Source of the DNA: a virus
Lineage: Duplodnaviria > Heunggongvirae > Uroviricota > Caudoviricetes
Direction: 5' to 3' (one strand)
Length of the DNA stretch: 15,535 nucleotides
Virus record (IMG/VR): IMGVR_UViG_2634166457_000017
Coordinates: 1 to 15,535 of that record
The first letter of the stretch is position 1. Every line of letters begins with the position of its first letter. A program made the translations under genes and the position numbers. This document shows positions 1-14,998 of the stretch, piece after piece. Below the pieces are notes generated by a model. It was not told the origin of the DNA, did no database searches, and saw only the letters and a program-made list of their open reading frames with translations.

Positions 1-1227
1 GTGGCAGGCACAAACAAACTGAGTGATAAAAAATTAAGATCGCTTCTCGGCGTAAAGCGGGATTCAGTAATTACCATTGCGGATGGTGAAGGATTAAGCA
101 TCAAAGTATCCATGATGGGATGCATTAGTTGGGTTTTCTCTTATCGTCTTGGTGGGCGTGGGAGCAAGTTAGAGCGCATTGTTCTTGGGCGTTACCCTGA
201 CATGTCGTTGAAAATGGCTAGGGAGAAGAGGGAACTATGCCGAAAATGGTATGCGGACGGGCTGAATCCACGACTTGAATTAGAACTTAGCGCAGAAGAA
301 AACCTTAACCCCGTAACTGTCCATGATGCCCTTGAATATTGGCTAATTCATTACGCAAGAAAAAAACGTAGTGACGAGGAACTCGTGCGGGCGCAATTAC
401 GTAAGCATATTTATCCGCGTCTTGGCCACTATCCGTTATCCCGGTGTGAAACGCGTCACTGGGTGACATGTTTTGATGAAATTAACCAGTCCAGGCCAAT
501 CACTGCCGGGCGAATGTTCCAGATTTGTAAACAGGCCTTAAGATTCTGCAAGGTTCGCCGTTATGCCTCATGTGATGCCCTGGCTTTTATGACAATCCAG
601 GATGTAGGGCAACCATCGGGGCAGCGTGATAGGGTGCTGTCAGATAGTGAGTTAGCTGATGTATGGCGGTGTACTTATAGCGATGAACAGCAATTTTATT
701 ATCTTCGTCTGCTTAAGTTGCTTGTGCTGTTTGGGGCGCGAACAATGGAAGTAAGATTATCCCGGTGGAGTGAATGGGATTTTCAGTCATGGATTTGGAC
801 GGTTCCTAAAGAACACAGCAAAACTCGTGAAAAAATAGTTCGTCCAATTCCAGAGGGCATTCGCCCATGGATTGAGGATCTAAAAAAGGAAACGGGAAAA
901 ACAGGAATTGTACTGGGTGAAGAACGTTCCCGCCAGGCTGCTTCGCTTAAAGGGCGTAGGCTATACAAAGATTTTCATCATAATGAGCCATGGACGCTTC
1001 ACGATTTGCGCAGAACATTTTCTACAGGTTTAAATAATATGGGTATTGCGCCACATATTGTAGAGCTTTTACTTGGTCATGCATTGCCGGGGGTGATGGC
1101 TATTTATAACCGTAGTCTGTACTTACCTGAGAAAATGGATGCGTTGAATAAGTGGTATGGCCGATTAGAACTTCTGGCTGGTAATCATCAAAATGTGGTG
1201 CTGTTACCTGTATCGAATAGAGGTTAA
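1..1227 (+). CDS. int: Tyrosine recombinase / phage integrase (P4-like, arm-binding N-terminus)
   Basis: 408-aa ORF; C-terminal catalytic region shows the R..HxxR..Y pattern (WTLHDLRRTFST, LLGHA, AIYNRSLY). N-terminus resembles P4-family integrase arm domain. GTG start sits at the window edge, so the true start could lie upstream. Confidence 0.85.
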   Translation: MAGTNKLSDKKLRSLLGVKRDSVITIADGEGLSIKVSMMGCISWVFSYRLGGRGSKLERIVLGRYPDMSLKMAREKRELCRKWYADGLNPRLELELSAEENLNPVTVHDALEYWLIHYARKKRSDEELVRAQLRKHIYPRLGHYPLSRCETRHWVTCFDEINQSRPITAGRMFQICKQALRFCKVRRYASCDALAFMTIQDVGQPSGQRDRVLSDSELADVWRCTYSDEQQFYYLRLLKLLVLFGARTMEVRLSRWSEWDFQSWIWTVPKEHSKTREKIVRPIPEGIRPWIEDLKKETGKTGIVLGEERSRQAASLKGRRLYKDFHHNEPWTLHDLRRTFSTGLNNMGIAPHIVELLLGHALPGVMAIYNRSLYLPEKMDALNKWYGRLELLAGNHQNVVLLPVSNRG

Positions 1228-1318
1228 ACTGATATTACGGGCATAGGTCGGCCAACCGAAAAGCGGGAAACCCTACCCGCCTGGCTCGTAAAGTATTTAG
1301 GGCGTTGAGGGTAGCGCA

Positions 1319-2248
1319 ATGGCTAACGACATTAAAATTCCTTTTCAGTATTGCAACATTGAGCGTGCATCAAGATTGCTGGGTTGCGAGATTAGCGATC
1401 TCGTGAATTTAGGTGTTACTAAAAAAATAGCTTTATGCCTAAATTTATTTGATGCTCGCGCTGTTTTATATATGAATACTGATAGCAAGTCTGCAACTGC
1501 TTGGTTTGATACCAGAAATGCAAAATCGACCACATCACTGATGGGGAACAATATTACTGAATACTCCAGGTTTCATCTTTTCAGATACAATTATAACGAG
1601 GAGACAGATGAAACTATACACGCGCCTTTATTCGGTCAAGACTCAGAAAACGGATGCTTTAGCTCTATTGGTAGGGCTTATGGATTGTGGCGCCTTTGGA
1701 GTGGGCTGGAAGAACTACAAAATTTTGGAGAGTATTCCCTAAGTGGTTTTGAATTAACCCCGTGTCATCCAGAAACTGATAATCCTGCCGTACAACTTTT
1801 AATGGTTGGTGAAGATAGTGATTATGATGAAGAAGACGATCAAATATTAAAGAATAATATTTCTATAAATGACTTGTGGATTACCGCTCATGATATAAGG
1901 CGACTTCTTGACTGTGGTGGCGATTATTTTACGCTAACAGATAATTTTGAATCTGTAGAACCTCACAAGATGAATGGCAATGAAATTGTGCAACATTCTG
2001 CTGAAAGACATGCAAGAAATCGAGAGCAAATTTTAATGGTTGCTATGCGTTTTAAAGAAGAGCAACAAAATACTTTTAATGAGACCTGCAGAAAAAACGA
2101 TGGAACGATTAACTATTCTGCTTGGGCTCGTGAGTTGATCGCCAGACCTGATTGGTTCATTAATAGTGAATTGCCAATAAAAACAGAAACAAAAATAGCA
2201 GCAATTTTAAGTAATGCTCATAAGAGGCCGAGTGAAAGGTCGCAGTAA
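1319..2248 (+). CDS. Hypothetical protein, AT-rich accessory gene of unknown function
   Basis: 309-aa ORF with GAGGGT Shine-Dalgarno 6 nt upstream of ATG; visibly more AT-rich than flanking genes; no recognisable catalytic motif (no P-loop, no HNH, no DEAD); possible helix-turn-helix-like N-terminus (ERASRLLGCEISDLVNLGVTKK), acidic cluster DSDYDEEDD. Confidence 0.6.
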   Translation: MANDIKIPFQYCNIERASRLLGCEISDLVNLGVTKKIALCLNLFDARAVLYMNTDSKSATAWFDTRNAKSTTSLMGNNITEYSRFHLFRYNYNEETDETIHAPLFGQDSENGCFSSIGRAYGLWRLWSGLEELQNFGEYSLSGFELTPCHPETDNPAVQLLMVGEDSDYDEEDDQILKNNISINDLWITAHDIRRLLDCGGDYFTLTDNFESVEPHKMNGNEIVQHSAERHARNREQILMVAMRFKEEQQNTFNETCRKNDGTINYSAWARELIARPDWFINSELPIKTETKIAAILSNAHKRPSERSQ

Positions 2249-2267
2249 GCCTTACTCATATACTCCT

Positions 2268-2306
2268 AAGCATACTGATATATTTATAAGCATTATCAGT
2301 ATGTTT
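2268..2306 (+). terminator. Possible intrinsic terminator after accessory ORF
   Basis: Perfect 10-bp inverted repeat CATACTGATA (2271-2280) / TATCAGTATG (2294-2303) followed by TTT; loop is long (13 nt), so weak call. Confidence 0.3.
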
Positions 2307-2385
2307 CTATGATTACTACTGTGTTTTAATCCAGTATTAAAGATTGCAAAATAGCCTCCGCAATCATAGATACAGTGGAGGCAAT

Positions 2386-2670
2386 ATGACAAAAACCACA
2401 TTCATTCCCCCAACTCCAGAACAACGCCGGGCGCTTCTTGAAGAATACGGTTTTGAATTTGATCGCCGTATCCGTGAAAAGGAATGCCAGGAAATCACCA
2501 GTCTGTCGCGCTCAACTCGCTTCAAAATGGAAAATGAAGGGCGTTTCCCGCCTCGTTGTCATTTCGGGCGCAATAGCTGTGCGTGGCTTCTCTCTGATGT
2601 GCTTTGGTGGGTTCGTAACCCACCTGCTGTAGATAAAGTCAATAATCCGTACGGTAAGAAAGCTGCATAA
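2386..2670 (+). CDS. alpA: AlpA-family transcriptional regulator / excisionase-like DNA-binding protein
   Basis: Translation contains ITSLSRSTRFKMENEGRFP...WLLSDVLWWV, matching the AlpA winged-helix signature. Start placed at ATG 2386 (GGAGG 4 nt upstream) rather than the ORF-track start at 2344. Confidence 0.75.
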   Translation: MTKTTFIPPTPEQRRALLEEYGFEFDRRIREKECQEITSLSRSTRFKMENEGRFPPRCHFGRNSCAWLLSDVLWWVRNPPAVDKVNNPYGKKAA

Positions 2671-2850
2671 GGGGGGAGTTATGACACATAAAACAAAGGC
2701 GACCGGGGGCGGTCGCCAATGGGAAAACACTAAACATAAGCCCGAACATCATAGCGGTTTGCTGACTGGTGGGCAATCTGTCAGGTTTGCACCAATGACT
2801 CCAGGTTTAACCGAGGGTCATTATGGTGAATATGCTGACTTGCTGGTGGG

Positions 2851-3048
2851 CTATTCCTGCTCTTTAACATCGCCATTCTGCGATGTTTTCCAGGTATGCG
2901 ATCCCATTTTTGTGCGCCTGTACTCTTTAAGGAACTTCTCAAGGACAAACGCACATGGCGCAAATCTTTCCTGTTCTTGTTCGCTTACCGCATTTTTGCG
3001 TTGTTTTTTCCTGGATGAAGATAATTTCTTTAATGATTTGTCAGTCAT
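2851..3048 (-). CDS. Small basic hypothetical protein (uncertain)
   Basis: 65-aa minus-strand ORF in the same frame as the downstream RHH gene; weak SD; lysine/arginine-rich N-terminus. Could be a shadow ORF. Confidence 0.25.
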   Translation of the reverse strand: MTDKSLKKLSSSRKKQRKNAVSEQEQERFAPCAFVLEKFLKEYRRTKMGSHTWKTSQNGDVKEQE

Positions 3049-3300
3049 CGTAGATACCTGTAACCCTGTGCGCCACAGTTCACCGCACCACGGCGCTGGT
3101 GATGGTTACTCCTGCTCTTTGGCCTTGCGGCGCTTTAGTTCTGCTGGAGCTAATCAATCATTGTATATTAGACGTGGGATCTTTTTTTCATCGCTCCTGC
3201 ATATACGCTCATTACTGACGTGTTCATTGCTGATGCAATTTCCTAGGAGGAAAACATATAAAAACAGGGAGCCAAACCAGTATATTTTTTGCTGCATGAG

Positions 3301-3486
3301 TTATTCCTTATCAGCCTCTTTGTTTTTTTTACGCTGGCGGCGTTTGATTTCGCCGCGCATGGCAGTAACGATAAATTGCGCGTCTGTTTCGTTTTCTTCT
3401 TTTACCAAATTCATTTCGCTTAAAACTTCTAGAGGTACTCTAGCTGTTTTTTGTTGTGACTTGTTGTTGGTTGTACCTGTTGGCAT
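3301..3486 (-). CDS. Ribbon-helix-helix (Arc/MetJ-like) transcriptional repressor
   Basis: 61-aa ORF with strong SD (TAAGGAG, 7-nt spacer); segment RVPLEVLSEMNLVKEENETDAQFIVTAMRGEIKRR follows the beta-strand/helix/helix pattern of Arc repressor (EVL..EEN..); divergent from the early operon and adjacent to a palindromic operator. Confidence 0.6.
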   Translation of the reverse strand: MPTGTTNNKSQQKTARVPLEVLSEMNLVKEENETDAQFIVTAMRGEIKRRQRKKNKEADKE

Positions 3487-3551
3487 CTCTGTTCTCCTTA
3501 CTGTTAGGTGGTGTTCAGTATACGGAGAAAAAAAATAAAAAAAGACTTGAA

Positions 3552-3596
3552 GTGCAAGTCACCTAAAAGTAACCTAGATTTCAAGGTGACTTGCAC
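3552..3596. promoter_or_regulatory. Palindromic operator in divergent promoter region
   Basis: Perfect 13-bp inverted repeat GTGCAAGTCACCT (3552-3564) / AGGTGACTTGCAC (3584-3596) with 19-bp spacer, between the minus-strand RHH gene and the + strand early operon; candidate -35 TTGAAG at 3548-3553 overlaps the left half-site. Confidence 0.55.
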
Positions 3597-3674
3597 CAAA
3601 AAGCAACGCCCCGCACTGTTGGAGCAGTAACGGGGCATCTAACCACCAACGATAACGATAGTATCGAGGTAGCT

Positions 3675-3878
3675 ATGTTAAATCATACCACACACCCGCA
3701 AGGGCGGGATTCGCACAACCTGAATAAATATATCTGGCGTTTTATCGCTCTGAGCACGGCACAACCGCGCGTGATTACCATTGAGGCCACCAGCGAACAG
3801 GAAGCACGTCAGCAATCTCCTGATGGCTGCGTGATGGTATTCGCTGCCCGTATCCGTCAGGGGGGGAGCCATGCATGA
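3675..3878 (+). CDS. Small protein, possibly Icd-like host cell division inhibitor (P4 kil-region type)
   Basis: 67-aa ORF from ATG 3675 with GAGGT SD; pattern YIWRFIAL...EATSEQEARQ...FAARIRQG resembles small Icd-like proteins of P4-type elements as I recall them; position upstream of primase matches the P4 early operon layout. The ORF-track start at 3591 is TTG inside the operator and is unlikely. Confidence 0.4.
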   Translation: MLNHTTHPQGRDSHNLNKYIWRFIALSTAQPRVITIEATSEQEARQQSPDGCVMVFAARIRQGGSHA

Positions 3879-4098
3879 TGACCGTTATTTTAAATCAATG
3901 AGCCATGCAGAAAATGCACTGACTAACAGTGAATGCTTGCGGCAAATATTGCTTATCTGGCTTGATGGTTTAAGTGATGCGCCGGAAGATGAGCGTGAAT
4001 CTAATCTTGCTGGTGCGTTTATTTCATTACTCGATACGGTAATCGTCGAATTAAATAAAGCGATCGAAATTCACGATAAAAAAATAAACGCGGAATAA
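3871..4098 (+). CDS. Hypothetical small protein
   Basis: 75-aa ORF, GGGGGGAG SD immediately upstream, overlaps previous stop by 8 nt (translational coupling). Confidence 0.45.
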   Translation: MHDDRYFKSMSHAENALTNSECLRQILLIWLDGLSDAPEDERESNLAGAFISLLDTVIVELNKAIEIHDKKINAE

Positions 4099-4103
4099 AA
4101 ACC

Positions 4104-4391
4104 ATGAAACAGAAAATTTCTGGCTTTACTGCCAGCGGCCCCGCTCGTCCTGAATTTATGAACGGCGATATTTACCGCGATAAATATGGCGGTACGGTAA
4201 CGATTAAAGGCGTGGCAGAACGGCGCATCACCTACCGCCGTGAAGGTTATGAATATGACTGCGTGATGCCTGTTTATCAATTCCGGCGTGATTTTAAGCT
4301 GGTGGGCCATCGTAAAGCCGTAAATAAGAAACGTGCAGCAAGCTATATCCGCAAAATCCGTGAAATGCTGGTCGCAGGGGGTAAGAAATGA
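4104..4391 (+). CDS. Hypothetical small basic protein
   Basis: 95-aa ORF; stop overlaps primase start (ATGA), suggesting coupled translation. Confidence 0.5.
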   Translation: MKQKISGFTASGPARPEFMNGDIYRDKYGGTVTIKGVAERRITYRREGYEYDCVMPVYQFRRDFKLVGHRKAVNKKRAASYIRKIREMLVAGGKK

Positions 4392-6136
4392 AACTGGCAC
4401 CGAACGTAAAAAAACAACCACGCGGAATAAAACACAAAGACACAGAGGTAATTATTTTCGCGGGTAGTGATGCGTGGGCACATGCAAAACAGTGGCAGGA
4501 GCAGGACGGCCCCGCATCCGGCGATGATGTGCCGCCTGTGTGGCTTGGGCCAAATCAGCTTGCCGAACTGGATGCGCTGAAAATTGTTCCGGATGGGAAA
4601 AAACGCGTAAGGCTGTACCAGGCCGGAGAACTGGATTTAGTGGAGACCAAAAAGATTGGTCAGAAGCTGGCGGCGGCAGATATTCAGGATGCGAATTTTT
4701 ACCCCGAAGGGATGCACGGACAGAAATGTGAGAACTGGCGGCGCTATCTGAATGCTGAGCGTGAAAATATTGCCGCAGGGATTACCATGCCGGAACAGAA
4801 AAAATCACAACTTTCACAGATGGCAGACAGTGAACGGGCACAGCTTCTTGCTTCCCGCTTTGATGGTGTCTGCGTCCATGCAGAAAGTGAAATCGTTCAC
4901 GTATGGCGTGACGGGGTATGGTGTCCGGTCAGCACAATGGAGCTGAGCCGCGAAATGGTGGCGGTTTATTCAGAACACGGGGCCACGTTCAGCAAGCGTG
5001 CAATTAATAACGCCGTTGAAGCATTAAAAGTTATTGCCCAGCCAATGGGGGAGCCGTCCGGCGATTTGCTGCCGTTCGCCAATGGTGCGCTTGACCTGAG
5101 AACAGGAGAATTTTCCCCGCACCAGCCGGATAACTGGCTCACCACCCACAACGGCATTGAGTACACGCCGCCAGTACCAGGGGAGAATATCCGCGACAAC
5201 GCGCCAAACTTTTATAAATGGCTTGATCACGCTGCCGGAAAAGACCCACACAAGATGATGCGCATATGTGCCGCGCTCTACATGATTATGGCGAACCGGT
5301 ACGACTGGCAGATGTTCATTGAGGCCACCGGAGACGGCGGGAGCGGTAAGAGTACATTCACGCACATTGCCACACTACTTGCCGGAAAACCGAACACGGT
5401 GAGCGCCGAGATGACATCGCTTGATGATGCTGGTGGGCGTGCGCAGGTTGTCGGGAGCCGCCTTATCGTTCTGGCAGACCAGCCGAAATACACGGGCGAG
5501 GGCACGGGCATCAAGAAAATCACGGGCGGCGACCCCGTGGAGATTAACCCGAAATATGAAAAGCGATTCACGGCGGTAATCAGGGCGGTTGTGCTGGCAA
5601 CCAATAATAACCCGATGATATTCACCGAACGGGCCGGAGGCGTGTCACGTCGTCGGGTGATATTCCGGTTCGATAACATCGTAAGCGAGGCAGAAAAAGA
5701 CAGGGAGCTACCGGAAAAGATAGCGGCAGAAATCCCTGTCATTATCCGCCGCTTGCTGGCGAACTTTGCCGACCCTGAAAAGGCACGGGCTTTACTCATT
5801 GAACAGCGAGACGGTGATGAAGCACTGGCGATAAAGCAGCAGACGGATCCGGTTATTGAGTTTTGCCAGTTCCTTAACTTTCTGGAAGAAGCACGCGGCC
5901 TGATGATGGGCGGCGGCGGTGACTCTTCCAGGTACACGACCAGAAACAGCCTTTACCGCGTCTATCTGGCGTTTATGGCGTATGCCGGCAGGAACAAGCC
6001 GCTGAACGTGGCTGAGTTCAGCAAAGCTATGAAGCCAGCGGCGAAAGTTTACGGACATGAATATATAACGCGCAGGATTAAAGGGATTACGCAAACCAAC
6101 GTGACAACAACAGACGACTGCGACGCGTTTTTATAA
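4388..6136 (+). CDS. Phage/plasmid primase-helicase, P4 family (D5_N-like plus SF3 NTPase)
   Basis: 582-aa ORF; Walker A GDGGSGKST; GGGGG SD upstream; immediately followed by iteron array. No obvious TOPRIM EGYATA motif seen, so it may be helicase/initiator only. Confidence 0.85.
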   Translation: MKLAPNVKKQPRGIKHKDTEVIIFAGSDAWAHAKQWQEQDGPASGDDVPPVWLGPNQLAELDALKIVPDGKKRVRLYQAGELDLVETKKIGQKLAAADIQDANFYPEGMHGQKCENWRRYLNAERENIAAGITMPEQKKSQLSQMADSERAQLLASRFDGVCVHAESEIVHVWRDGVWCPVSTMELSREMVAVYSEHGATFSKRAINNAVEALKVIAQPMGEPSGDLLPFANGALDLRTGEFSPHQPDNWLTTHNGIEYTPPVPGENIRDNAPNFYKWLDHAAGKDPHKMMRICAALYMIMANRYDWQMFIEATGDGGSGKSTFTHIATLLAGKPNTVSAEMTSLDDAGGRAQVVGSRLIVLADQPKYTGEGTGIKKITGGDPVEINPKYEKRFTAVIRAVVLATNNNPMIFTERAGGVSRRRVIFRFDNIVSEAEKDRELPEKIAAEIPVIIRRLLANFADPEKARALLIEQRDGDEALAIKQQTDPVIEFCQFLNFLEEARGLMMGGGGDSSRYTTRNSLYRVYLAFMAYAGRNKPLNVAEFSKAMKPAAKVYGHEYITRRIKGITQTNVTTTDDCDAFL

Positions 6137-6144
6137 TTTTAGAC

Positions 6145-6380
6145 AAAAGCCCTCTACCCCTTCTACCTTAAGAAAATAATTGCATATATTTCATATGGAT
6201 AGGTTTGGTAGATGGCAGGTAGAAGGCACTTAAAAGCCCTCTACACCCTCTACCATAATTCAGGGCATTTGTGAGGGGGTGGTAGATGGCAGGTAGAGGG
6301 CCAAAAAAGCCATCTACCCCGCTGAAAGCCGCGCCATTACTGACCTGAAAGATGATTAGGTAGAGAGGTAGAGGAGGTGC
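6145..6380. repeat. Iteron array / putative origin of replication
   Basis: Eleven copies of hexamer TCTACC/GGTAGA in about 230 bp, organised as alternating-orientation 20-23 bp units (e.g. GGTAGATGGCAGGTAGAAGG at 6207-6226 and GGTAGATGGCAGGTAGAGGG at 6281-6300; AAAAGCCCTCTACCCCTTCTACC at 6145-6167 and AAAAGCCCTCTACACCCTCTACC at 6232-6254), with an AT-rich stretch 6170-6198; directly downstream of the initiator gene. Confidence 0.65.
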
Positions 6381-6422
6381 ACCACAACCCAAAACTTTTT
6401 AAACACGAGGGTAAAAATAAAA

Positions 6423-6680
6423 ATGCACACTACAGAAAAACTTAACAATCAGAAGAAACCACATAACCGCGCCATTGAGTTTACAGAGCACTTGCTGAGG
6501 GTGGCGATAAAAATCATCGACCGCAACGCGGGAGAAGGATACGCGAAAGCCCATCCCGAACTGGTAAGCGCATTCATGACAACGGCAGCGGCAAACTTTG
6601 CCACGCTGACAGAACGGGAGATTGCCGAAGCGGAACAGGTGACAACCATCAACGTTAAAACCGGAGAGCAGACAGCATGA
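6423..6680 (+). CDS. Hypothetical protein
   Basis: 85-aa ORF; stop overlaps the SSB start (ATGA). Confidence 0.5.
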   Translation: MHTTEKLNNQKKPHNRAIEFTEHLLRVAIKIIDRNAGEGYAKAHPELVSAFMTTAAANFATLTEREIAEAEQVTTINVKTGEQTA

Positions 6681-7102
6681 CGGCACAGATAGCGGCACAC
6701 GGGCGGCTGGTGGACGACCCACAGGTAAAACAGACCAGCAAGGGCACACCCATGACGCTGGCACGGATGGCGGTATCCGTACCGTGCCATAACGCAGACG
6801 ACGGACAGGCGACGCTATGGCTTGCCGTAACTGCCTTTGGTAAGCAGGCCGACGCGCTGGCAAAGCACCACAAAGGCGAACTGGTGAGCGTGGCGGGTAA
6901 CATGCAGGTAAGCCAGTGGACAGGCCAGAACGGCGAAACGCGGCAGGGCTGGCAGGTTATCGCAGACAGTATAATCAGTGCGCGAACCGTGCGACCAGGT
7001 GGCAGGAAAGGCCAACAAGGGCAGGCTACTGACGCACTGAACAGGGCAAAACAACAGACAGGCCAGCACGATGACCCATACGGGGATGAAATACCGTTTT
7101 AG
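6677..7102 (+). CDS. ssb: Single-stranded DNA-binding protein (SSB-like, short)
   Basis: 141-aa ORF; OB-fold-like core aligns by eye with E. coli SSB (LWLAVTAFGKQADALAKHHKGELVSVAGNMQVSQWTGQNGETRQGW); C-terminus DDPYGDEIPF resembles the SSB acidic tip DDDIPF. Confidence 0.7.
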   Translation: MTAQIAAHGRLVDDPQVKQTSKGTPMTLARMAVSVPCHNADDGQATLWLAVTAFGKQADALAKHHKGELVSVAGNMQVSQWTGQNGETRQGWQVIADSIISARTVRPGGRKGQQGQATDALNRAKQQTGQHDDPYGDEIPF

Positions 7103-7120
7103 CGATAACAGGGGAGATAC

Positions 7121-7369
7121 ATGCCAGTGACATTTGAAGAAGTTCAGCAACATAAAAAGTTTCATGGTTTTGATGATCTGGAAACCACGACAGCAAAAAA
7201 ATATCGCCGTCTGCTTTCTTCCGATGCGTTATTTGTTGTGGATCATCATGATTTTCTGCGCAGCTCACTGACCGGGGAAATTTTCGCAACCAACCGTGAG
7301 CAGGTGGAAGCGATGATCGAATATCTGTGGAAAATAAGACGCAGAATGCGGGATCCCGTGAAACAATAA
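7121..7369 (+). CDS. Hypothetical protein
   Basis: 82-aa ORF with GGGGAG SD; followed by an intrinsic terminator. Confidence 0.55.
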   Translation: MPVTFEEVQQHKKFHGFDDLETTTAKKYRRLLSSDALFVVDHHDFLRSSLTGEIFATNREQVEAMIEYLWKIRRRMRDPVKQ

Positions 7370-7378
7370 AGCGATAAA

Positions 7379-7407
7379 GGCCTGGATTTTTTCCAGGTCT
7401 TTTTTTC
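7379..7407 (+). terminator. Rho-independent terminator ending the replication module
   Basis: Stem CCTGGA (7381-7386) / TCCAGG (7392-7397) with 5-nt loop, followed by TCTTTTTTT. Confidence 0.6.
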
Positions 7408-7423
7408 AGGTTTTGTAAATTAT

Positions 7424-7453
7424 TTGTTCGTGGTTGTTCCAGGTTGTTCGGTG
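7424..7453. repeat. Three tandem 10-bp direct repeats upstream of the capsid operon (candidate activator binding sites)
   Basis: TTGTTCGTGG / TTGTTCCAGG / TTGTTCGGTG at 7424-7433, 7434-7443, 7444-7453, just upstream of a TTTACA (7467-7472) -35-like hexamer. Confidence 0.5.
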
Positions 7454-7643
7454 ATTCTGGCTGATGTTTACATACTGATTTTTATGTATATCTTGAAGAG
7501 TGGCACTCAGACGTGAGCCGCCACAATGCCGCCTGACCCCCTGCGCGATGCCGGGTTGATCTGCGAGATGTCGAGAGTGTCGGGCGGCGCTCCCTCCGTG
7601 TTGGTTTCACGTCCTGAATCTTAACCAATACGAGAAAACCTTC

Positions 7644-8789
7644 ATGAAGAAATTAATCGAACTCCGCCAGCAAAAAACCGCCCTGAAAAACCAGATGCGC
7701 TCCCTGCTGGAAAAAGCAGACAGTGAAAACCGCAGCCTGAACGATGACGAGGGCAAACAGTTTGATGAACTGCGTGCAAAAGCTGATTCCCTCGACACAG
7801 AAATCTCCCGTCTTGAAGCTGTTGCGGATGAAGAACGTAACCAGCCAGGTGTTTCCGTCGAAGAGAAAATCACCAAAGACGAATTGCGCTCTTATATTCT
7901 GACCGGGGAAACCCGCAACCTGTCCGGCAGTGTCCCGGCTGATGGTGGTTATACGGTTATCCCGGAACTGAACAGAGAAATTATGCGTCAGCTTTCTGAT
8001 GAATCGGTGATGCGTAAAATCTGTACCGTTAAAACCATTCACAGCAATGAATTTAAGCAACTGGTTTCTACCGGGGGGGCGGTCGTTGAACACGGCGAAG
8101 AAGGTGCGGCACGTAACCAGACGGCAACACCAAAACTGAATGAAGTCAGTATCCGCCTGTATCCGATTTACGCTTACCCGAAAACCACTCAGGAAATTAT
8201 CGATTTTTCCGAAGTCGATATTATGAGCTGGTTATCTTCTGAAATTGGCGACACTTTCGTTGATACCGAAGAAACGGATCTGGTTTCCGGTGACGGCGAG
8301 AAAAAAGCTAAAGGCTTCCTGGCTTTCCCGCGCACTGCGGACAATGACAAAACCCGTCCTTTCGGTACGCTCCAGACGAAAAAAGTTACTGGCAGTCTCA
8401 GCGCCGACATGCTGATTGACCTGAAATTTACGCTACGCAATAAGTACCGCAAAAAAGCTGTATGGGTGATGAACTCAAATACAGCCGCCTCCGCACAAAA
8501 ACTGAAAAATGCCACTGGTGATTACATCTGGCGCGATCGTTTACAGGCTGGTGATCCTGATTCTCTGCTGGGGCTTCCGGTTGAATATCTGGAATTTATG
8601 CCGGACGGTGTGATTGCAGTAGGTGACTTTAAGCGCGGTTATTTCATCGTTGACCATGAAACCGGTACGCGAACCCGTCCGGACTTCAGCGAACCCGGAT
8701 TCATTAACATCTATACCCAGAAATATCTGGGCGGTGGTGTGGTGGATTCGAACGCCATCAAGATTCTGGAAATTCAGGCTGGCAAGTAA
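7644..8789 (+). CDS. Major capsid protein, HK97 family (with N-terminal delta/scaffold-like coiled coil)
   Basis: 381-aa ORF; N-terminal charged coiled-coil segment typical of the HK97 gp5 delta domain; gene context capsid-protease-portal. Confidence 0.85.
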   Translation: MKKLIELRQQKTALKNQMRSLLEKADSENRSLNDDEGKQFDELRAKADSLDTEISRLEAVADEERNQPGVSVEEKITKDELRSYILTGETRNLSGSVPADGGYTVIPELNREIMRQLSDESVMRKICTVKTIHSNEFKQLVSTGGAVVEHGEEGAARNQTATPKLNEVSIRLYPIYAYPKTTQEIIDFSEVDIMSWLSSEIGDTFVDTEETDLVSGDGEKKAKGFLAFPRTADNDKTRPFGTLQTKKVTGSLSADMLIDLKFTLRNKYRKKAVWVMNSNTAASAQKLKNATGDYIWRDRLQAGDPDSLLGLPVEYLEFMPDGVIAVGDFKRGYFIVDHETGTRTRPDFSEPGFINIYTQKYLGGGVVDSNAIKILEIQAGK

Positions 8790-8795
8790 TGAGCA

Positions 8796-8820
8796 AAGGG
8801 GGCTTCGGCCTCCTTTTTCA
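8796..8820 (+). terminator. Intrinsic terminator/attenuator after major capsid gene
   Basis: AAGGGGGC (8796-8803), TTCG loop, GCCTCCTT (8808-8815) forming an 8-bp stem with one G-U pair, then T-run. Confidence 0.5.
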
Positions 8821-8838
8821 GCTTTATGGAGTACACCG

Positions 8839-9399
8839 ATGAAAAATACCGATTTTGAAATCCGTACATCTGAACTGACCGCCAGCGATAAAAAACTGGT
8901 GGGTTATGCCGTTCGCTGGAACAGTCTTTCAGAAATTATCTGGGATGAGTTCCGCGAACAATTCACGCCGGGGGCTTTTGCTGACTATCTGGCTGCGGGT
9001 AATGATGTGCGCTGCCTGTATGAGCATGACTGTACCCGACTGCTGGGGCGTACCAAATCCGGCACACTGGTACTGACTGAGGATAACACCGGGTTACGTT
9101 TTGAACTGACACCGCCGGATACCCAGCTTGGGAAAGATGTGCTTACGCTGGTGGAGCGAGGCGACATTACAGGAATGAGCTTTGGCTTTCGCGCATTATG
9201 TGAGGAGTGGAATATCGCGCAAAAACCGTATCTGCGTACTGTTACCGCCGCAGAACTCAGGGAAATCACGATAACGTCGATGCCTGCTTACCCCGAATCT
9301 GGTGTGGAGATTGCCCACCGTTCGTTGTTTGCACAGCACCCTGAATTACGCCCGACAGGAAATAATCGTCATCGCTGGGCTGAACTGGCGGGGTTGTGA
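8839..9399 (+). CDS. Prohead maturation protease, HK97 family (S78-like)
   Basis: 186-aa product from ATG 8839 (GGAG SD); N-terminal LVGYAVRWNSLSE...FTPGAF typical of HK97 prohead protease. The ORF-track extension to 8623 overlaps the capsid gene and is not used. Confidence 0.8.
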   Translation: MKNTDFEIRTSELTASDKKLVGYAVRWNSLSEIIWDEFREQFTPGAFADYLAAGNDVRCLYEHDCTRLLGRTKSGTLVLTEDNTGLRFELTPPDTQLGKDVLTLVERGDITGMSFGFRALCEEWNIAQKPYLRTVTAAELREITITSMPAYPESGVEIAHRSLFAQHPELRPTGNNRHRWAELAGL

Positions 9400-9400
9400 T

Positions 9401-10615
9401 ATGTGGTGGCCTTTTAGTCGTAAAAAAAGCGATCTGCGTAACCTGTCCATTGATGATTTTCTGGCGCTGTCCGGCGTACCGAATACCGGATCCGGAGAAT
9501 ATGTTTCTGCCGGGACGGCTGAATCATTGCCTGCAGTGATGAACGCGGTTTCTGTCATCGCTGAGGCGGTGGCCACGATGCCGTGTTATCTGTATCTGGT
9601 ACGTAATGACAAGGGCAGGGAGGCGCGGGAATGGCTGGACAGTCATCCGGTAGATATTCTGCTGAATGAGCAGCCTAATTCGTGCCAGACACCTTACCAG
9701 TTTAAACGCACAATGATGCGTCACTGCCTGCTGAACGGTAACGCCTATGCGGTTATTGAGTGGGGGCGGGACGGGCAGCCCAAATCACTTCATCCTTATG
9801 CACCGGGTTGTGTTGTACCGGAACGCACAGGCGCACACAAATACCGCTATACCATCACCGAACCCTATACAGGAACGGTGCGCACGTATTTACAGGAAGA
9901 AGTTTTGCATCTCCGCTATGCCTCGGATGATGGCTTTCTGGGGCGCTCCCCTGTCACGATTTGCCGTGAGGCGCTGGGGCTTGGCCTTGCTCAACAGCGC
10001 CACGGAGCCAGCATTATGAAAGATGGCATGATGGCGGCAGGGATTATCACGTCAGGCGAATGGCTGGACGGCGTGAAAGGTAAACAGGCATTAGATGCTC
10101 TGGAACGCTATAAGGGGGCGAAAAATGCCGGAAAAACGCCAATCCTTGAAGGGGGCATGGATTACAAGCAACTGGGGATGAGTAACCAGGATGCGGAATG
10201 GTTGGCCTCCCGTCGCTTCTCCATTGAAGACATTGCCCGTATGTTCAACGTGTCGCCGATTTTTCTTCAGGAATACAGCAACAGCACCTACAGCAATTTC
10301 AGTGAGGCAAGCCGCGCGTTTCTGACTATGACAATGCGTCCGTGGCTGGCGAACTTCGAACAGCAAATCAAGGCCGCTTTGCTGGTGGCTTCTCCCGTAC
10401 CTGGTACCCGTTATCTGGTTGAGTTTGATTCAGCCGATTTACTGCGCGCCACCCCTACCGAACGTTACGCCACGTATGAGAAAGGGATTAAGAACGGGAT
10501 CATGAATCCGAACGAAGCCCGTGAGCGTGAGGGAATGCCGCCGCGTGAAGGTGGCGACGAGTTCAGCCAGGCATGGAAGCAGACTGTGGAAATTAAAGGT
10601 GAAAAAGATGAGTGA
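9401..10615 (+). CDS. Portal protein, HK97 family
   Basis: 404-aa product from ATG 9401, 1 nt after protease stop; size and context fit an HK97-type portal. Confidence 0.8.
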   Translation: MWWPFSRKKSDLRNLSIDDFLALSGVPNTGSGEYVSAGTAESLPAVMNAVSVIAEAVATMPCYLYLVRNDKGREAREWLDSHPVDILLNEQPNSCQTPYQFKRTMMRHCLLNGNAYAVIEWGRDGQPKSLHPYAPGCVVPERTGAHKYRYTITEPYTGTVRTYLQEEVLHLRYASDDGFLGRSPVTICREALGLGLAQQRHGASIMKDGMMAAGIITSGEWLDGVKGKQALDALERYKGAKNAGKTPILEGGMDYKQLGMSNQDAEWLASRRFSIEDIARMFNVSPIFLQEYSNSTYSNFSEASRAFLTMTMRPWLANFEQQIKAALLVASPVPGTRYLVEFDSADLLRATPTERYATYEKGIKNGIMNPNEAREREGMPPREGGDEFSQAWKQTVEIKGEKDE

Positions 10616-10907
10616 AGACAAAATTACACCTGATGAAGTCAGGGCACATCTTCGCCTTGATGACTTTTCCGGAGAAGGCGAACTTCTGAAAATGTATACC
10701 GATGCGGCGCTGGAAGCCTGCCAGAAGCATATCGGGAAACGTTTTGAAGACGGGCTGGAATTTACCCCGGCAATACGTGTTGGTTGCCTGATGTACATCG
10801 CTTTCCTGTATGAGAACAGGGAAGCGGTTTCACCTGTGGAGCAGTCTGAACTGCCTATGGCTATTTCTGCGCTCTGGTCGGTTTATCGTGATGTGGGGGT
10901 GTACTGA
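10608..10907 (+). CDS. Head-tail connector protein (gp6-like)
   Basis: 99-aa product; N-terminal ITPDEVRAHLRLDDFSGEGELLKMYTDAA matches the conserved start of gp6-like head-tail connector proteins; AAAGGTGA SD; overlaps portal stop. Confidence 0.7.
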   Translation: MSEDKITPDEVRAHLRLDDFSGEGELLKMYTDAALEACQKHIGKRFEDGLEFTPAIRVGCLMYIAFLYENREAVSPVEQSELPMAISALWSVYRDVGVY

Positions 10908-11346
10908 TGCCGTGGCAACCATTAAGGCGATGCACTGAGCCGGGCTGTAATAAGCGCGTGAAGTCCGGCAAGTGTGAAGAGCACAGGCGGGCTGCATGGC
11001 GTGCAGAGGATGCCAGACGGGGACACCGCCGCGCGCGCGGGTATTCCCGACAGTGGGACAAATACCGCGCCCTGTACCTGAGCAAAAACCCGTTATGCGT
11101 GCGTTGTCTGGCTAAGGGGATTTATACGCCAGCTCTTGTGGTGGATCACATCATTCCCATCAATGGCGCGGTGATGTTCTCTTCTGGCCTGAGTGGAATC
11201 ACCAGGCATTGTGCCAGACGTGCCACAACCGTAAGACGACACGGGAAGATCCAGCCACGAAAGCGAACCGTAAGGCGGGCATGTATCGCGAGCAGGAAGA
11301 ACGGGCGGCACATCGTAACGACTGGATGTATGGCGATGATGACTGA
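10907..11346 (+). CDS. HNH endonuclease, disrupted by an apparent -1 frameshift near 11165-11172 (possible pseudogene or sequencing error)
   Basis: Frame of ORF 10907..11515 encodes CVRCLAKGIYTPALVVDHIIPING, then loses the motif; the frame shifted by one base encodes GDVLFWPEWNHQALCQTCHNRKTTRED and stops at 11344-11346. The D-H and N/H halves of the HNH motif are therefore in different frames. Confidence 0.7.
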
Positions 11347-11634
11347 ACAGGAGCAAAACAGGCTGATACGTGGACTGATAAGGCAGCGTGACTTATGGAA
11401 GACACAGGAGACAGGGCACAAAGCCAACAGGACAGGACGCACAGAACGCACCACAGCGAAGCGATTAACCGACCGTGACCGCGAGGTCATGGAATGTTTT
11501 CGCAATCGCTGGTGAAGCCGTCAGAGGGGGTGGGGGAGGTTTTCAGGACGAAACCGTCCCTGCCGGACACCGACCGCCTCCTCAAATTTTTGTGCACGGG
11601 AATTTTTTTGAAAATAATTGGGCGAAAAAAGAAC
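11347..11634. other. Candidate cos / terminase recognition region between HNH and terS
   Basis: Location between HNH and small terminase as in HK97-type phages; purine-rich direct repeats ACAGGAGACAGGGCACA (11404-11420) and ACAGGACAGGACGCACA (11427-11443); G-rich tract GAGGGGGTGGGGGAGG (11524-11539); small hairpin GGACG-AAAC-CGTCC (11546-11559). Confidence 0.3.
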
Positions 11635-11991
11635 ATGGCAAGACCACCAAAAGCCCCCGCTTACCTGGATGAAATCGCGGTCAGGCAGTGGAAGGAAAAA
11701 TCGCGCCAGCTTTCCGGGCGGGAAGACCTTACCCCCGCCGACTGGAGCAATCTGGAACTGTATTGCGTTAACTACTCCATATACCGCAAAGCCGTCGAAG
11801 ACCTTGCGACGCGCGGCTTCAGCATTGTTAACAGTCAGGGCAGCGAGAGCAGAAACCCCGCCCTGAGCGCAAAGGCTGACGCGGAAAGAATAATGATCAA
11901 AATGGCTTCTTTGCTGGGTTTTGACCCGGTAAGCCGCCGCAGAAATCCACCGGAAACAGAGGAAGAGGACGAGCTTGACCGCCTGGCATGA
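11635..11991 (+). CDS. terS: Terminase small subunit, P27 family
   Basis: Translation MARPPKAPAYLDE...LYCVNYSIYRKA...SRNPALSAKAD...LLGFDPVSRRR matches the P27-family TerS pattern. An alternative upstream start at ATG 11494 (with GAGG SD) cannot be excluded. Confidence 0.7.
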   Translation: MARPPKAPAYLDEIAVRQWKEKSRQLSGREDLTPADWSNLELYCVNYSIYRKAVEDLATRGFSIVNSQGSESRNPALSAKADAERIMIKMASLLGFDPVSRRRNPPETEEEDELDRLA

Positions 11992-13636
11992 GTACGCAGA
12001 AGGCGTAAAAAACGGCAAAATTACGGCCTGTAAACGACTGAAACAGGCCGTTAAACGGTATTTTTATGACCTTGAAAACCCCCTTTACACGTTCGATCCT
12101 GAGGTCGTGGAGCGGTTTATTGCCTTTTCCAGGGTGTGCCCGCACGTAAAAGGCGCAATGCGCGGTAGCCCCATTGAGCTGGAGCCGTGGCAGCAGTTCG
12201 CCTTTGCGTGCATCCTGGGCTTTAAGGTTAAGGCCACCGGACGGCGCAAATACACCAGCGCATTCATTGAAGTACCGCGAAAAAATGCCAAATCCACGGT
12301 CGCCGCTATCCTGGCTAACTGGTTTCTGGTTATGGAAAACGGGCAGCAGGATATTTACACCGCCGCCGTGAGTCGTGATCAGGCGCGGATCGTGTTTGAT
12401 GATGCGCGTCAGATGTGCCTTTTATCCCGACCGTTACGAAAGCGGGTAAATATTCAGGCACACAAGGTGATACACACGAAAACCAACAGCCTGTTAAAGC
12501 CACTGGCAGCAAAAGCGGCAACCATTGAAGGTACAAACCCGAGTCTTGCCATTGTGGATGAATATCACCTGCACCCTGACAACGGGGTTTATTCCGCGCT
12601 TGAACTGGGAATGGGGGCGCGTCCGGAGGGGTTATTATTTGCCATCACCACATCGGGGAGCAACGTTGTTTCAGCCTGTAAACAACACTACGACTATTGC
12701 TGCCAGATACTGGATGGTGAAGAGGTGAACGAATCCATGTTCGTGCTGATTTACGAGCTGGATGATGAAAGCGAGGTTGACGATCCGGCGATGTGGATAA
12801 AGGCGAATCCCAATATCGATGTTTCCGTCGATCGTGAAAAACTGGCCTCAACCATCCAGAAAGCGCGGGGTATTCCGTCGCAGTGGGTGGAAATGCTCAC
12901 CAAGCGATTCAATATCTGGTGTCAGGGGGCTACGCCGTGGATGGGTAACGGTGCATGGGCGGAGTGCGCCGGAATGTTCGCGGAGGCGGATTTATACGGG
13001 CAGGAGTGCTACGCGGGGCTGGACTTATCATCAACCAGCGATATTTCCAGCGTGTGCTATGCCTTTCCGGTCGGTAAAAAGATTATGCTGGTTTCCCGTC
13101 ACTATCTGCCGGAATTTCAGCTACAGAACCCTGCCAATAAAAACCGCGCCATCTATCGCCAGTGGGCAAAGGCGGGCTGGATACGCACAACACCGGGTGA
13201 CTGCATTGATTATGACCGTATCCGTGATGACATCATGGCGGATGCAGAGAATTTCAATATCAGGCTGGTGGGTTTCGATACATGGAACGCCACGCACCTG
13301 AGGACGCAGCTACAGGGCGCGGGATTTGAGGTGGAGCCGTTCCCGCAAACATACCTTCGTTTCAGTCCGGCGGCGAAATCGTTCGAAGTTTTTGTTAACC
13401 GGAAGGTGATTGTGCATCGTGGTGATCCGGTGCTGGCCTGGTCAATGAGTAATGTTGTGATGCAGAGTGACGCGAACGCCAATATCAAGCCGAACAAGAA
13501 AAAATCATCCAACAAGATAGACCCGAGCGTTGCGGCGCTGATGGCGTTTGGCACATTCCAGGCAGAGCATGAGGAATTTGCATTCGATATGAGCGACAGC
13601 CACAAAGAGCGGCTTGCGGCGTTTGATGGGGTATAA
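11975..13636 (+). CDS. terL: Terminase large subunit
   Basis: 553-aa ORF; Walker A-like VPRKNAKST and Walker B-like LAIVDEYH; TTG start with AGAGGA SD, overlapping the terS end. Confidence 0.9.
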   Translation: MTAWHEYAEGVKNGKITACKRLKQAVKRYFYDLENPLYTFDPEVVERFIAFSRVCPHVKGAMRGSPIELEPWQQFAFACILGFKVKATGRRKYTSAFIEVPRKNAKSTVAAILANWFLVMENGQQDIYTAAVSRDQARIVFDDARQMCLLSRPLRKRVNIQAHKVIHTKTNSLLKPLAAKAATIEGTNPSLAIVDEYHLHPDNGVYSALELGMGARPEGLLFAITTSGSNVVSACKQHYDYCCQILDGEEVNESMFVLIYELDDESEVDDPAMWIKANPNIDVSVDREKLASTIQKARGIPSQWVEMLTKRFNIWCQGATPWMGNGAWAECAGMFAEADLYGQECYAGLDLSSTSDISSVCYAFPVGKKIMLVSRHYLPEFQLQNPANKNRAIYRQWAKAGWIRTTPGDCIDYDRIRDDIMADAENFNIRLVGFDTWNATHLRTQLQGAGFEVEPFPQTYLRFSPAAKSFEVFVNRKVIVHRGDPVLAWSMSNVVMQSDANANIKPNKKKSSNKIDPSVAALMAFGTFQAEHEEFAFDMSDSHKERLAAFDGV

Positions 13637-13641
13637 CGAGA

Positions 13642-13926
13642 ATGAGCGAAACCGAACTACTAAAAATAATCCGCCGCATTACCGGAATCAGCCAGGAAGC
13701 AGGCAAACAGGAGGCCACGCAGCCGGACAGCGTGATAGCCGAAAATTACGCGCGTGTGGTGGCTGAGGTGATGCGCCGTGATGGTATTGAGCTTAACGGC
13801 GTGGATATGCGAGACATACGGATCCGAGTTCTTGAAATGCTGGCCTACAATCGCCGCGTGGAGATGTACCGGGAGAAAGAAAAAATTACTTACCACTGGA
13901 AGAAGCCGGAGCGGTTACGGCGGTAA
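13642..13926 (+). CDS. Hypothetical protein (possible head completion/adaptor function)
   Basis: 94-aa ORF immediately after terL; no recognisable motif. Confidence 0.45.
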   Translation: MSETELLKIIRRITGISQEAGKQEATQPDSVIAENYARVVAEVMRRDGIELNGVDMRDIRIRVLEMLAYNRRVEMYREKEKITYHWKKPERLRR

Positions 13927-13931
13927 CTTTG

Positions 13932-14204
13932 ATGACTGATAACGTAGATTTGCGTCATCATAAAAATCAATTGGTTACGATTACAGGCGGCGTTGTAGCC
14001 TGTTACGATTATCGTAATCCCTTTCTGTATGACAGGGTGGCAGGTATGGTGATTTCCGCCCCTCCTTTGCAAATTGACAACGTAGTGTGTGATGTCGAAT
14101 TAACTCCGTACGTTAAACGTACGGAGTTCCCGGCAGGCTTAGGTTCCGACGAAATTCGTCGACACCTCCCGGCAGGAACAGCGAGAATTACGTCGCTGAT
14201 GTAG
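13932..14204 (+). CDS. Hypothetical protein
   Basis: 90-aa product from ATG 13932 (ORF-track start 13929 is TTG); last ORF of the island; weak RBS. Confidence 0.4.
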   Translation: MTDNVDLRHHKNQLVTITGGVVACYDYRNPFLYDRVAGMVISAPPLQIDNVVCDVELTPYVKRTEFPAGLGSDEIRRHLPAGTARITSLM

Positions 14205-14998
14205 CCTACGAAATTTTCGCAGGTTAATTATCTATCTGCTTAATCGCTAACCCACTGATTTTTATGATGACTCAAATTTGAAGCATCTTTGTTTACGTTG
14301 ATATTGTGTCAAAGCCCTTTTTCGGGCTTTGGCCTAACCCGCTGATATTTTCGGAAACAGCCATCGACTGAGGCCGGAGTAACCGACTATCTTTGAGATA
14401 GTCAGATGTACGAAATTTGTGCGGGACTAAAAGTCCCGCGCAAATTCACTACATCACCGTAATGGTTATGCAGTCCACCAGCAACCATAACGATTTCCGT
14501 TACTGTTGATGTGCTTTTTTGCTGGTAAGGCGTAATCCGTTGATTGTTCCACAAACCTCAATTTGAGGAAGCCGGAAAACTCACCCGCCAGATTCTGAAT
14601 GGTGAAAATCACCGGGGATCTGAATAGGCATTTCCTCTATGGAGGTCGCACCGTTTTCGGGAGAAGGTGCGATCATGTTCGTCATACCGGTTCCGTTGAA
14701 ATGAAATAGCCCTGTATGGGCATCATCACCATGCAGGGGATCAAAATCTCTGTAGCTTCATGTTGCCGGGACCGCCAGCCTCGCCAAATTTTTGCGTTTG
14801 TGAAAAACGAAAATTATTACGTGCTTTGCCCTCTCCTGTTTCTGATGTTGTATACTCGCGGCCTTCTAATTGTGCTGGTGCTTTTTTGAGATTGTGGCGC
14901 TGTGTATCGATCCGTATATCATTCGGTGTATCACTTTTGATAAATTGCTACGTGTGAATTTGTTTTTAACTGACAAAAATCAGTGGGTTATGTGAATT

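Follow-up and report, generated by a model that had tools for sequence, protein, structure and literature searches.

A single missing G splits the hnh reading frame of a capsid-forming PICI

In the window, by which we mean the whole stretch of 15,535 nucleotides of viral DNA analysed here, the HNH endonuclease gene (hnh) of a capsid-forming PICI (cf-PICI) is split between two reading frames. The split motif is real, it is caused by the loss of one G, and it is not a chance resemblance. We favour, with a probability of roughly 0.55, the reading that this is a genuine one-base deletion, private to one strain, which inactivates hnh in an otherwise intact island. Both the gene, as a terminase-associated HNH, and the lesion, as a private one-base deletion, are ordinary, and nothing here is new in kind.

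The two halves of hnh and the missing base

Frame 1, read from 10907, gives MPWQ...LVVDHIIPINGAVMFSS... and stays open to 11515 as a 202-aa ORF. The first 87 residues of this ORF are MPWQPLRRCTEPGCNKRVKSGKCEEHRR...CVRCLAKGIYTPALVVDHIIPING, followed by AVMFSSGLSGITRH..., and they include the VVDHIIPING half of the motif, which the initial annotation had correctly read in the upstream frame. The frame two bases ahead, equivalent to a -1 shift, translates as ...GDVLFWPEWNHQALCQTCHNRKTTREDPATKANRKAGMYREQEERAAHRNDWMYGDDD and ends at 11346. From 11170 it reads GDVLFWPEWNHQALCQTCHNRKTTRED...WMYGDDD with its stop at 11344-11346, and it is here that the remainder of the HNH motif, GDVLFWPEWNHQALCQTCHNRKT...DDD*, can be read. 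The 58 residues of this -1 frame occur without change in the C-terminal part of the relatives' intact 146-aa protein.

Aligned with E. coli tcmA_3 and six further homologues, at 67-99% nucleotide identity, the window shows a single gap. It reads AATGGC-GCGGTGAT, against AATGGCGGCGGTGAT in all close relatives, with one G absent at 11168; in codons, the relatives carry GGC GGC GGT and the window GGC -GC GGT. The intact tract is GGCGGCGG and the string that marks the intact allele is GGCGGCGGT. It follows that one of two adjacent Gs was lost at 11168, and the -1 shift proposed in the initial annotation for 11165-11172 is thereby placed to the base by these seven homologues. The tcmA_3 gene encodes the uninterrupted 146-aa protein ...VVDHIIPINGGGDVLFWPEWNHQALCQTCHNRKT.... 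A compensating second indel, which would have left only a short out-of-frame patch, was considered and rejected: there is one gap only over the 621 nt that cover hnh and the downstream small ORF, and the deletion is therefore not compensated.

Membership of the Pfam HNH family (PF01844) is defined by a complete His...Asn...His beta-beta-alpha-metal motif and a [CxxC]2 zinc site in one polypeptide, with a gathering cut-off of 21.4 bits. As encoded, the 202-aa ORF reached 17.6 bits over profile positions 1-23 of 47, and by this score the product falls outside the family; no Pfam match is on record for the deposited 202-aa ORF. When the G was restored, the score rose to 39 bits over positions 1-47 of 47. 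Because the score is below the threshold as encoded and reaches 39 bits once repaired, we regard hnh as a disrupted member of the family, a homologue by descent whose domain, judged from its sequence, is predicted to be non-functional as written. The repaired protein matches the HNH protein of phage GVE2 (PDB 5H0M) over residues 1-114 (E = 9e-16). The break is located between the Asp-His pair and the Asn, second CxxC and last His, all of them defining elements of the [CxxC]2 His-Asn-His catalytic domain in phage HNH enzymes associated with cos (PMC3592412). By location the gene belongs with the terminase-associated (HK97 GP74-type) HNH genes, as its neighbours include terS and terL in an HK97-like head and packaging module of the cos type.

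A programmed -1 ribosomal frameshift, or another form of recoding, would also yield a full-length HNH protein from the two frames, and the -1 frame, open from 11116, does continue the HNH protein perfectly. However, no X XXY YYZ heptamer occurs from the Asp-His codons to 11170, nor anywhere in 11146-11172, and the sole heptamer in hnh, AAACCCG at 11086-11092, runs into a -1-frame stop at about 11113. There is likewise no homopolymer of six or more bases in hnh that could support transcriptional slippage. The initial annotation had named a two-frame arrangement shared by homologues as the sign of a programmed event; none of the homologues examined has such an arrangement, and the deletion allele was absent from three public collections. 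With no slippery site and no conservation, programmed frameshifting was rejected for hnh and is excluded for practical purposes.

Island architecture and surroundings

The window is a cf-PICI and an ordinary member of this described satellite family. Gene calls with Pfam, and near-identical islands in RefSeq, gave the order int, alpA, primase, ssb, capsid, protease, portal, connector, hnh, terS and terL, and this order matches that given for proteobacterial cf-PICIs in section 9 of the family's description (10.1101/2022.09.08.507074). The island is also about 15 kb long, has no tail genes and is flanked by host sequence, with only two small ORFs after terL and then hpt-can-yadGH. The features are collected in Table 1. 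By its position, the non-coding stretch at 11516-11635 is a candidate cos region.

Table 1. Features of the cf-PICI and of its hnh region (positions in the window)
Feature	Position	Strand	Remarks
Integration, regulation and replication part	1-7369	+	int, int-alpA RNA, alpA-type HTH, DUF4222, primase, ssb
int	1-1227	+	1227 nt
int-alpA RNA (Rfam RF02996)	1236-1302	+	55.2 bits (gathering score 35.8); located after the integrase stop and before the next ORF
D5_N/DUF5906 primase	4388-6136	+	
ssb	6677-7102	+	
Major capsid protein	7644-8789	+	Same length as in relatives
S78 prohead protease	8839-9399	+	Same length as in relatives
Portal	9401-10615	+	Same length as in relatives
gp6-like head-tail connector	10608-10907	+	99 aa, intact; stop overlaps the hnh start
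hnh 5' part, original frame	10907-11169	+	Zinc ribbon CTEPGC...CEEH, first CxxC (CVRC), catalytic Asp-His in VVDHIIPING
Chimeric ORF of 202 aa, as annotated in the deposited assembly	10907-11515	+	N-terminal half of hnh, then about 54 residues out of frame and the 61-aa downstream ORF fused in frame
Missing-G site	11168	+	One of two adjacent Gs lost relative to homologues
hnh 3' part, -1 frame only	11170-11346	+	Asn, second CxxC and last His of the motif; stop 11344-11346
Conserved 61-aa hypothetical ORF	11330-11515	+	Length and position as WP_001251184.1 of relatives; normally overlaps the hnh 3' end
Non-coding stretch, 61-aa ORF to start of 118-aa terS	11516-11635		G5TG5 GGGGGTGGGGG at 11526-11536; T/A-rich tract
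terS (P27 / Terminase_4 family)	11636-11991	+	118 aa; called from the ATG at 11494 by some programs
terL	11975-13636	+	553 aa, full length

The island is inserted between gcd and hpt, and the host genes downstream are hpt-can-yadGH-yadI-yadE-panD. The relative in ATCC 43886 occupies the same site, with gcd upstream of int. Between the last ORF of the island and hpt, about 800 nt (14205-14998) showed no long ORF, no tRNA by ARAGORN and no Rfam match; this stretch presumably contains attR, and the left junction of the island falls outside the window.

Comparison with the close relatives over window positions 1-2784 and 7112-13933 found no other frame-breaking indels; the stretch between these two parts aligns only partly and at lower identity. 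Compared with ATCC 43886 alone, the window seemed to have another private deletion, at the int 3' end. This was rejected, since three other close relatives share the 1227-nt int of the window and ATCC 43886 is therefore the variant at this point. The window lacks, at 7102-7121, a ProQ/FinO-family gene of about 530 nt that is found between ssb and an 82-aa ORF in ATCC 43886 (8368-8917) and in tcmA_3 (7155-7704). The replication modules vary as well: the window has the D5_N/DUF5906 primase, and relatives have DUF927, a 'DNA primase family' gene or a RepA helicase. In their left half, these islands are therefore mosaic.

In tcmA_3, the closest relative in a complete genome, the protease, portal and connector genes (9985-12058) are annotated as partial or frameshifted. 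The 1-2-nt differences from the window in that interval all fall in homopolymer runs, a pattern suggestive of long-read assembly error and not of decay. The tcmA_3 island lies directly beside an HK97-like prophage.

Distribution and origin of the deletion allele

A megablast search with 10850-11520 gave matches in 534 of 5,426 complete E. coli genomes; the best matches spanned 672 bases against the 671-base query, and all 534 genomes covered at least 80% of hnh. The deletion site itself, in a 71-nt query centred on it, was recovered from 189 complete E. coli genomes, 154 of them at 98.6% identity, which equals a single gap. None of the 189 was at least 99% identical to this query, so the deletion allele was absent from the complete E. 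coli genomes that carry the site. In 30 matches sampled evenly from 99.3% down to 66.9% identity, the full-length ones (28 of 28) spanned 441 bases against the 440-base query. Six homologues, including the one in Sakai prophage Sp7, were aligned as both DNA and protein and all were single-frame. Indeed, every homologue examined, at 67-99% nucleotide identity, is a single-frame gene of 441 or 444 nt.

Exact-pattern scans of species-representative genomes, metagenome contigs and viral contigs returned 0 matches to the deletion allele; the intact allele, in the viral and metagenome collections, was present 57 times (in 37 viral contigs and 20 from metagenomes). Phage records gave only distant matches, at 75-76% identity, which carry no information on the deletion site. 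Within an index of 153 billion gene positions, the 202-aa product had exact matches on two contigs only, namely scaffold KQ241470.1 of GCA_001186315.2 and a contig of the Logan assembly of run SRR024322. The window was taken from GCA_001186315.2, and KQ241470.1 is identical to it over 14,629 bases. The two sources are probably the same strain. A literature search turned up no paper with the accessions GCA_001186315, SRR024322 or KQ241470.

Two further genomes drew attention during these comparisons. An apparently split hnh in CP024978.1, with calls of 39 and 82 aa, was discarded as a quirk of gene calling, as the DNA encodes an intact 146-aa protein. In E. coli UMNF18 (AGTD01000001.1, near 3173) there is an independent one-base insertion, a T after hnh nucleotide 374, which alters the C-terminal tail and leaves a product of 137 aa. 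The RefSeq name of this product is still HNH protein, and no terS is called in the UMNF18 copy.

The deletion allele is thus a singleton, and this counts against a real mutation. The competing explanation is a sequencing or assembly artefact, in which the strain would have GGCGGCGGT and an intact 146-aa HNH protein and one G of the two-base run would have been under-called. We hold this to be possible, at somewhat below even odds. The artefact reading is consistent with the occurrence of the allele nowhere else among the scanned genomes, metagenome contigs and viral contigs, and with the position of the missing base within a homopolymer, though a short one. There is also no other sign of decay: the island is 98.9-99.4% identical to relatives with an intact hnh, and the aligned parts are free of further frame-breaking indels. 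UMNF18, with its different one-base insertion in the same gene, is another old assembly, and SRR024322, the only run with the deletion allele, has an early accession. In drafts of that era an indel error typically occurs about once per 10-100 kb, and a single one within the 15.5 kb of the window would be unremarkable.

The two carrier assemblies can be compared directly. They were made by different software and both carry the deletion, and in 8,007 aligned bases they differ only once, at window position 9770, where the deposited scaffold has GGG and the Logan contig (at 6233) has GG. The shorter run splits the portal gene of the Logan contig into calls of 205 and 199 aa, whereas the portal of the deposited scaffold is full-length. 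This difference points to homopolymer-length noise in the SRR024322 reads. The Logan contig also ends at 11544, just past the G5TG5 tract, and both the portal error and this break in a G-rich tract speak for an artefact.

On the other side, two assemblers agree on the hnh deletion, and the deposited version, GCA_001186315.2, has the correct portal homopolymer and yet retains the deletion. As both assemblies probably represent the same strain and possibly the same reads, they are not independent. Consensus errors of the pyrosequencing type concentrate in long homopolymers, and the affected run consists of only two Gs; an under-call from two to one that reaches the consensus would be an uncommon error for the presumed pyrosequencing-type technology. 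The lack of any other frame-breaking indel in 1-2784 and 7112-13933 indicates that the assembly is not locally error-ridden there, and the lengths of the seven downstream host genes agree with those of K-12. On balance we lean toward the private deletion.

Expected effect on packaging and comparison with known systems

If the deletion is real, ribosomes starting at 10907 would translate the zinc ribbon, first CxxC and Asp-His pair and would then run out of frame after the point where the G is lost from GGCGGCGG. The Asn, the second CxxC and the last His, which complete the beta-beta-alpha-metal nuclease fold, would be lost, and the product would be a 202-aa chimera fused to the 61-aa ORF. After induction the island would be expected to excise, replicate and build its own small capsids. 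Its TerS-TerL would be without an HNH partner for cos cleavage, so no transducing particles would form and the island would be stranded in its lineage. Comparison with the close relatives, where they align, revealed no further frame-breaking indel, and for this reason the lesion looks very recent.

The initial annotation linked the HNH protein to cos cleavage in HK97-type systems, and the literature supports this role: HK97 GP74, an HNH protein, promotes cos cleavage together with TerL (PMC9410871, citing Kala 2014), and hnh, terS and terL are described as the packaging genes of cf-PICIs (10.1101/2022.09.08.507074). In section 7 of the latter report, each gene of the packaging module of the prototype cf-PICI was mutated, and transfer was abolished in all cases except the hypothetical gene 1792; the hnh mutant is not individually named in that section. 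Replication was unaffected in these mutants, and the presence of HK106, a wild-type HK97-like helper, did not rescue them. The suggestion in the initial annotation that a frameshift could make packaging defective or helper-dependent is therefore retained in its first part, as the expected phenotype of a real lesion. Its second part finds no support in that section, because the mutants were tested with HK106 present and were not rescued. By analogy, a real hnh-null allele should strand the island rather than make it helper-dependent.

A real lesion might still be bypassed, either by HNH supplied in trans from a co-resident cf-PICI or an HK97-like helper prophage, or by reassembly of the two fragments. 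Up to five copies of this hnh family occur in one E. coli genome, and a second copy in the same cell is conceivable. However, the failure of HK106 to rescue the prototype mutants, as given in the same section 7, argues against supply by a helper. The longest ORF in the -1 frame starts at TTG 11209, beyond the Asn of the motif, so a complete C-terminal fragment could not be made. We consider such a bypass very improbable. For the more specific case, in which a truly hnh-null island nevertheless moves with a compatible HNH provided in trans by another cf-PICI or by an HK97-like prophage of the same cell, we allow only a slim chance. Were it so, one satellite would depend on another for cos cleavage, and the pairing of HNH with terminase would be looser among cf-PICIs than between a cf-PICI and its helper.

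The significance of the preferred reading, a private deletion, is very small beyond this single assembly. If it holds, the island provides a natural hnh-null cf-PICI allele, a convenient natural control for the HNH requirement in satellite packaging, and an example of how cf-PICIs become stranded. If the missing base is a read error, HNH is intact and the sole consequence is a correction of the deposited sequence. Since gene callers report the 202-aa ORF as a 'hypothetical protein' with no domain match, pipelines that require HNH or a complete packaging module may mis-score the island.

Among known systems, the prototype cf-PICI EcCIEDL933, with its O157 counterpart Sakai Sp7, resembles the window in the succession of int-alpA-replication, capsid-protease-portal-connector and hnh-terS-terL (Alqurainy et al., 10.1101/2022.09.08.507074). 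Both have no tail genes and a length of about 14-15 kb. They differ in that the island of the window is located at gcd/hpt and has another replication module. In Sakai Sp7, the neighbour of hnh is immediately preceded by a gene annotated 'phage head-tail adaptor'; in the window, by contrast, the portal runs straight into the connector. The hnh of Sakai Sp7 is 82.5% identical to that of the window at the nucleotide level, and it is intact at 441 nt while that of the window is frameshifted.

HK97 GP74, the GVE2 HNH protein (5H0M) and the hnh product of the window are all small HNH proteins with a zinc ribbon, and their genes adjoin the terS/terL genes of cos phages. The sequence relatedness of GP74 and the GVE2 protein to the window protein is distant, and the product of the window is without the second half of the catalytic domain. 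The nearest intact relatives are the cf-PICIs of E. coli 2014C-3075, tcmA_3, ATCC 43886 and Br_190_kylling (HNH WP_001145897.1 / WP_001145900.1), with an hnh 98.4-99.3% identical to that of the window and an identical connector protein, and that of ATCC 43886 shares the gcd-hpt site. Unlike the window, they carry GGCGGCGGT and encode the 146-aa HNH protein.
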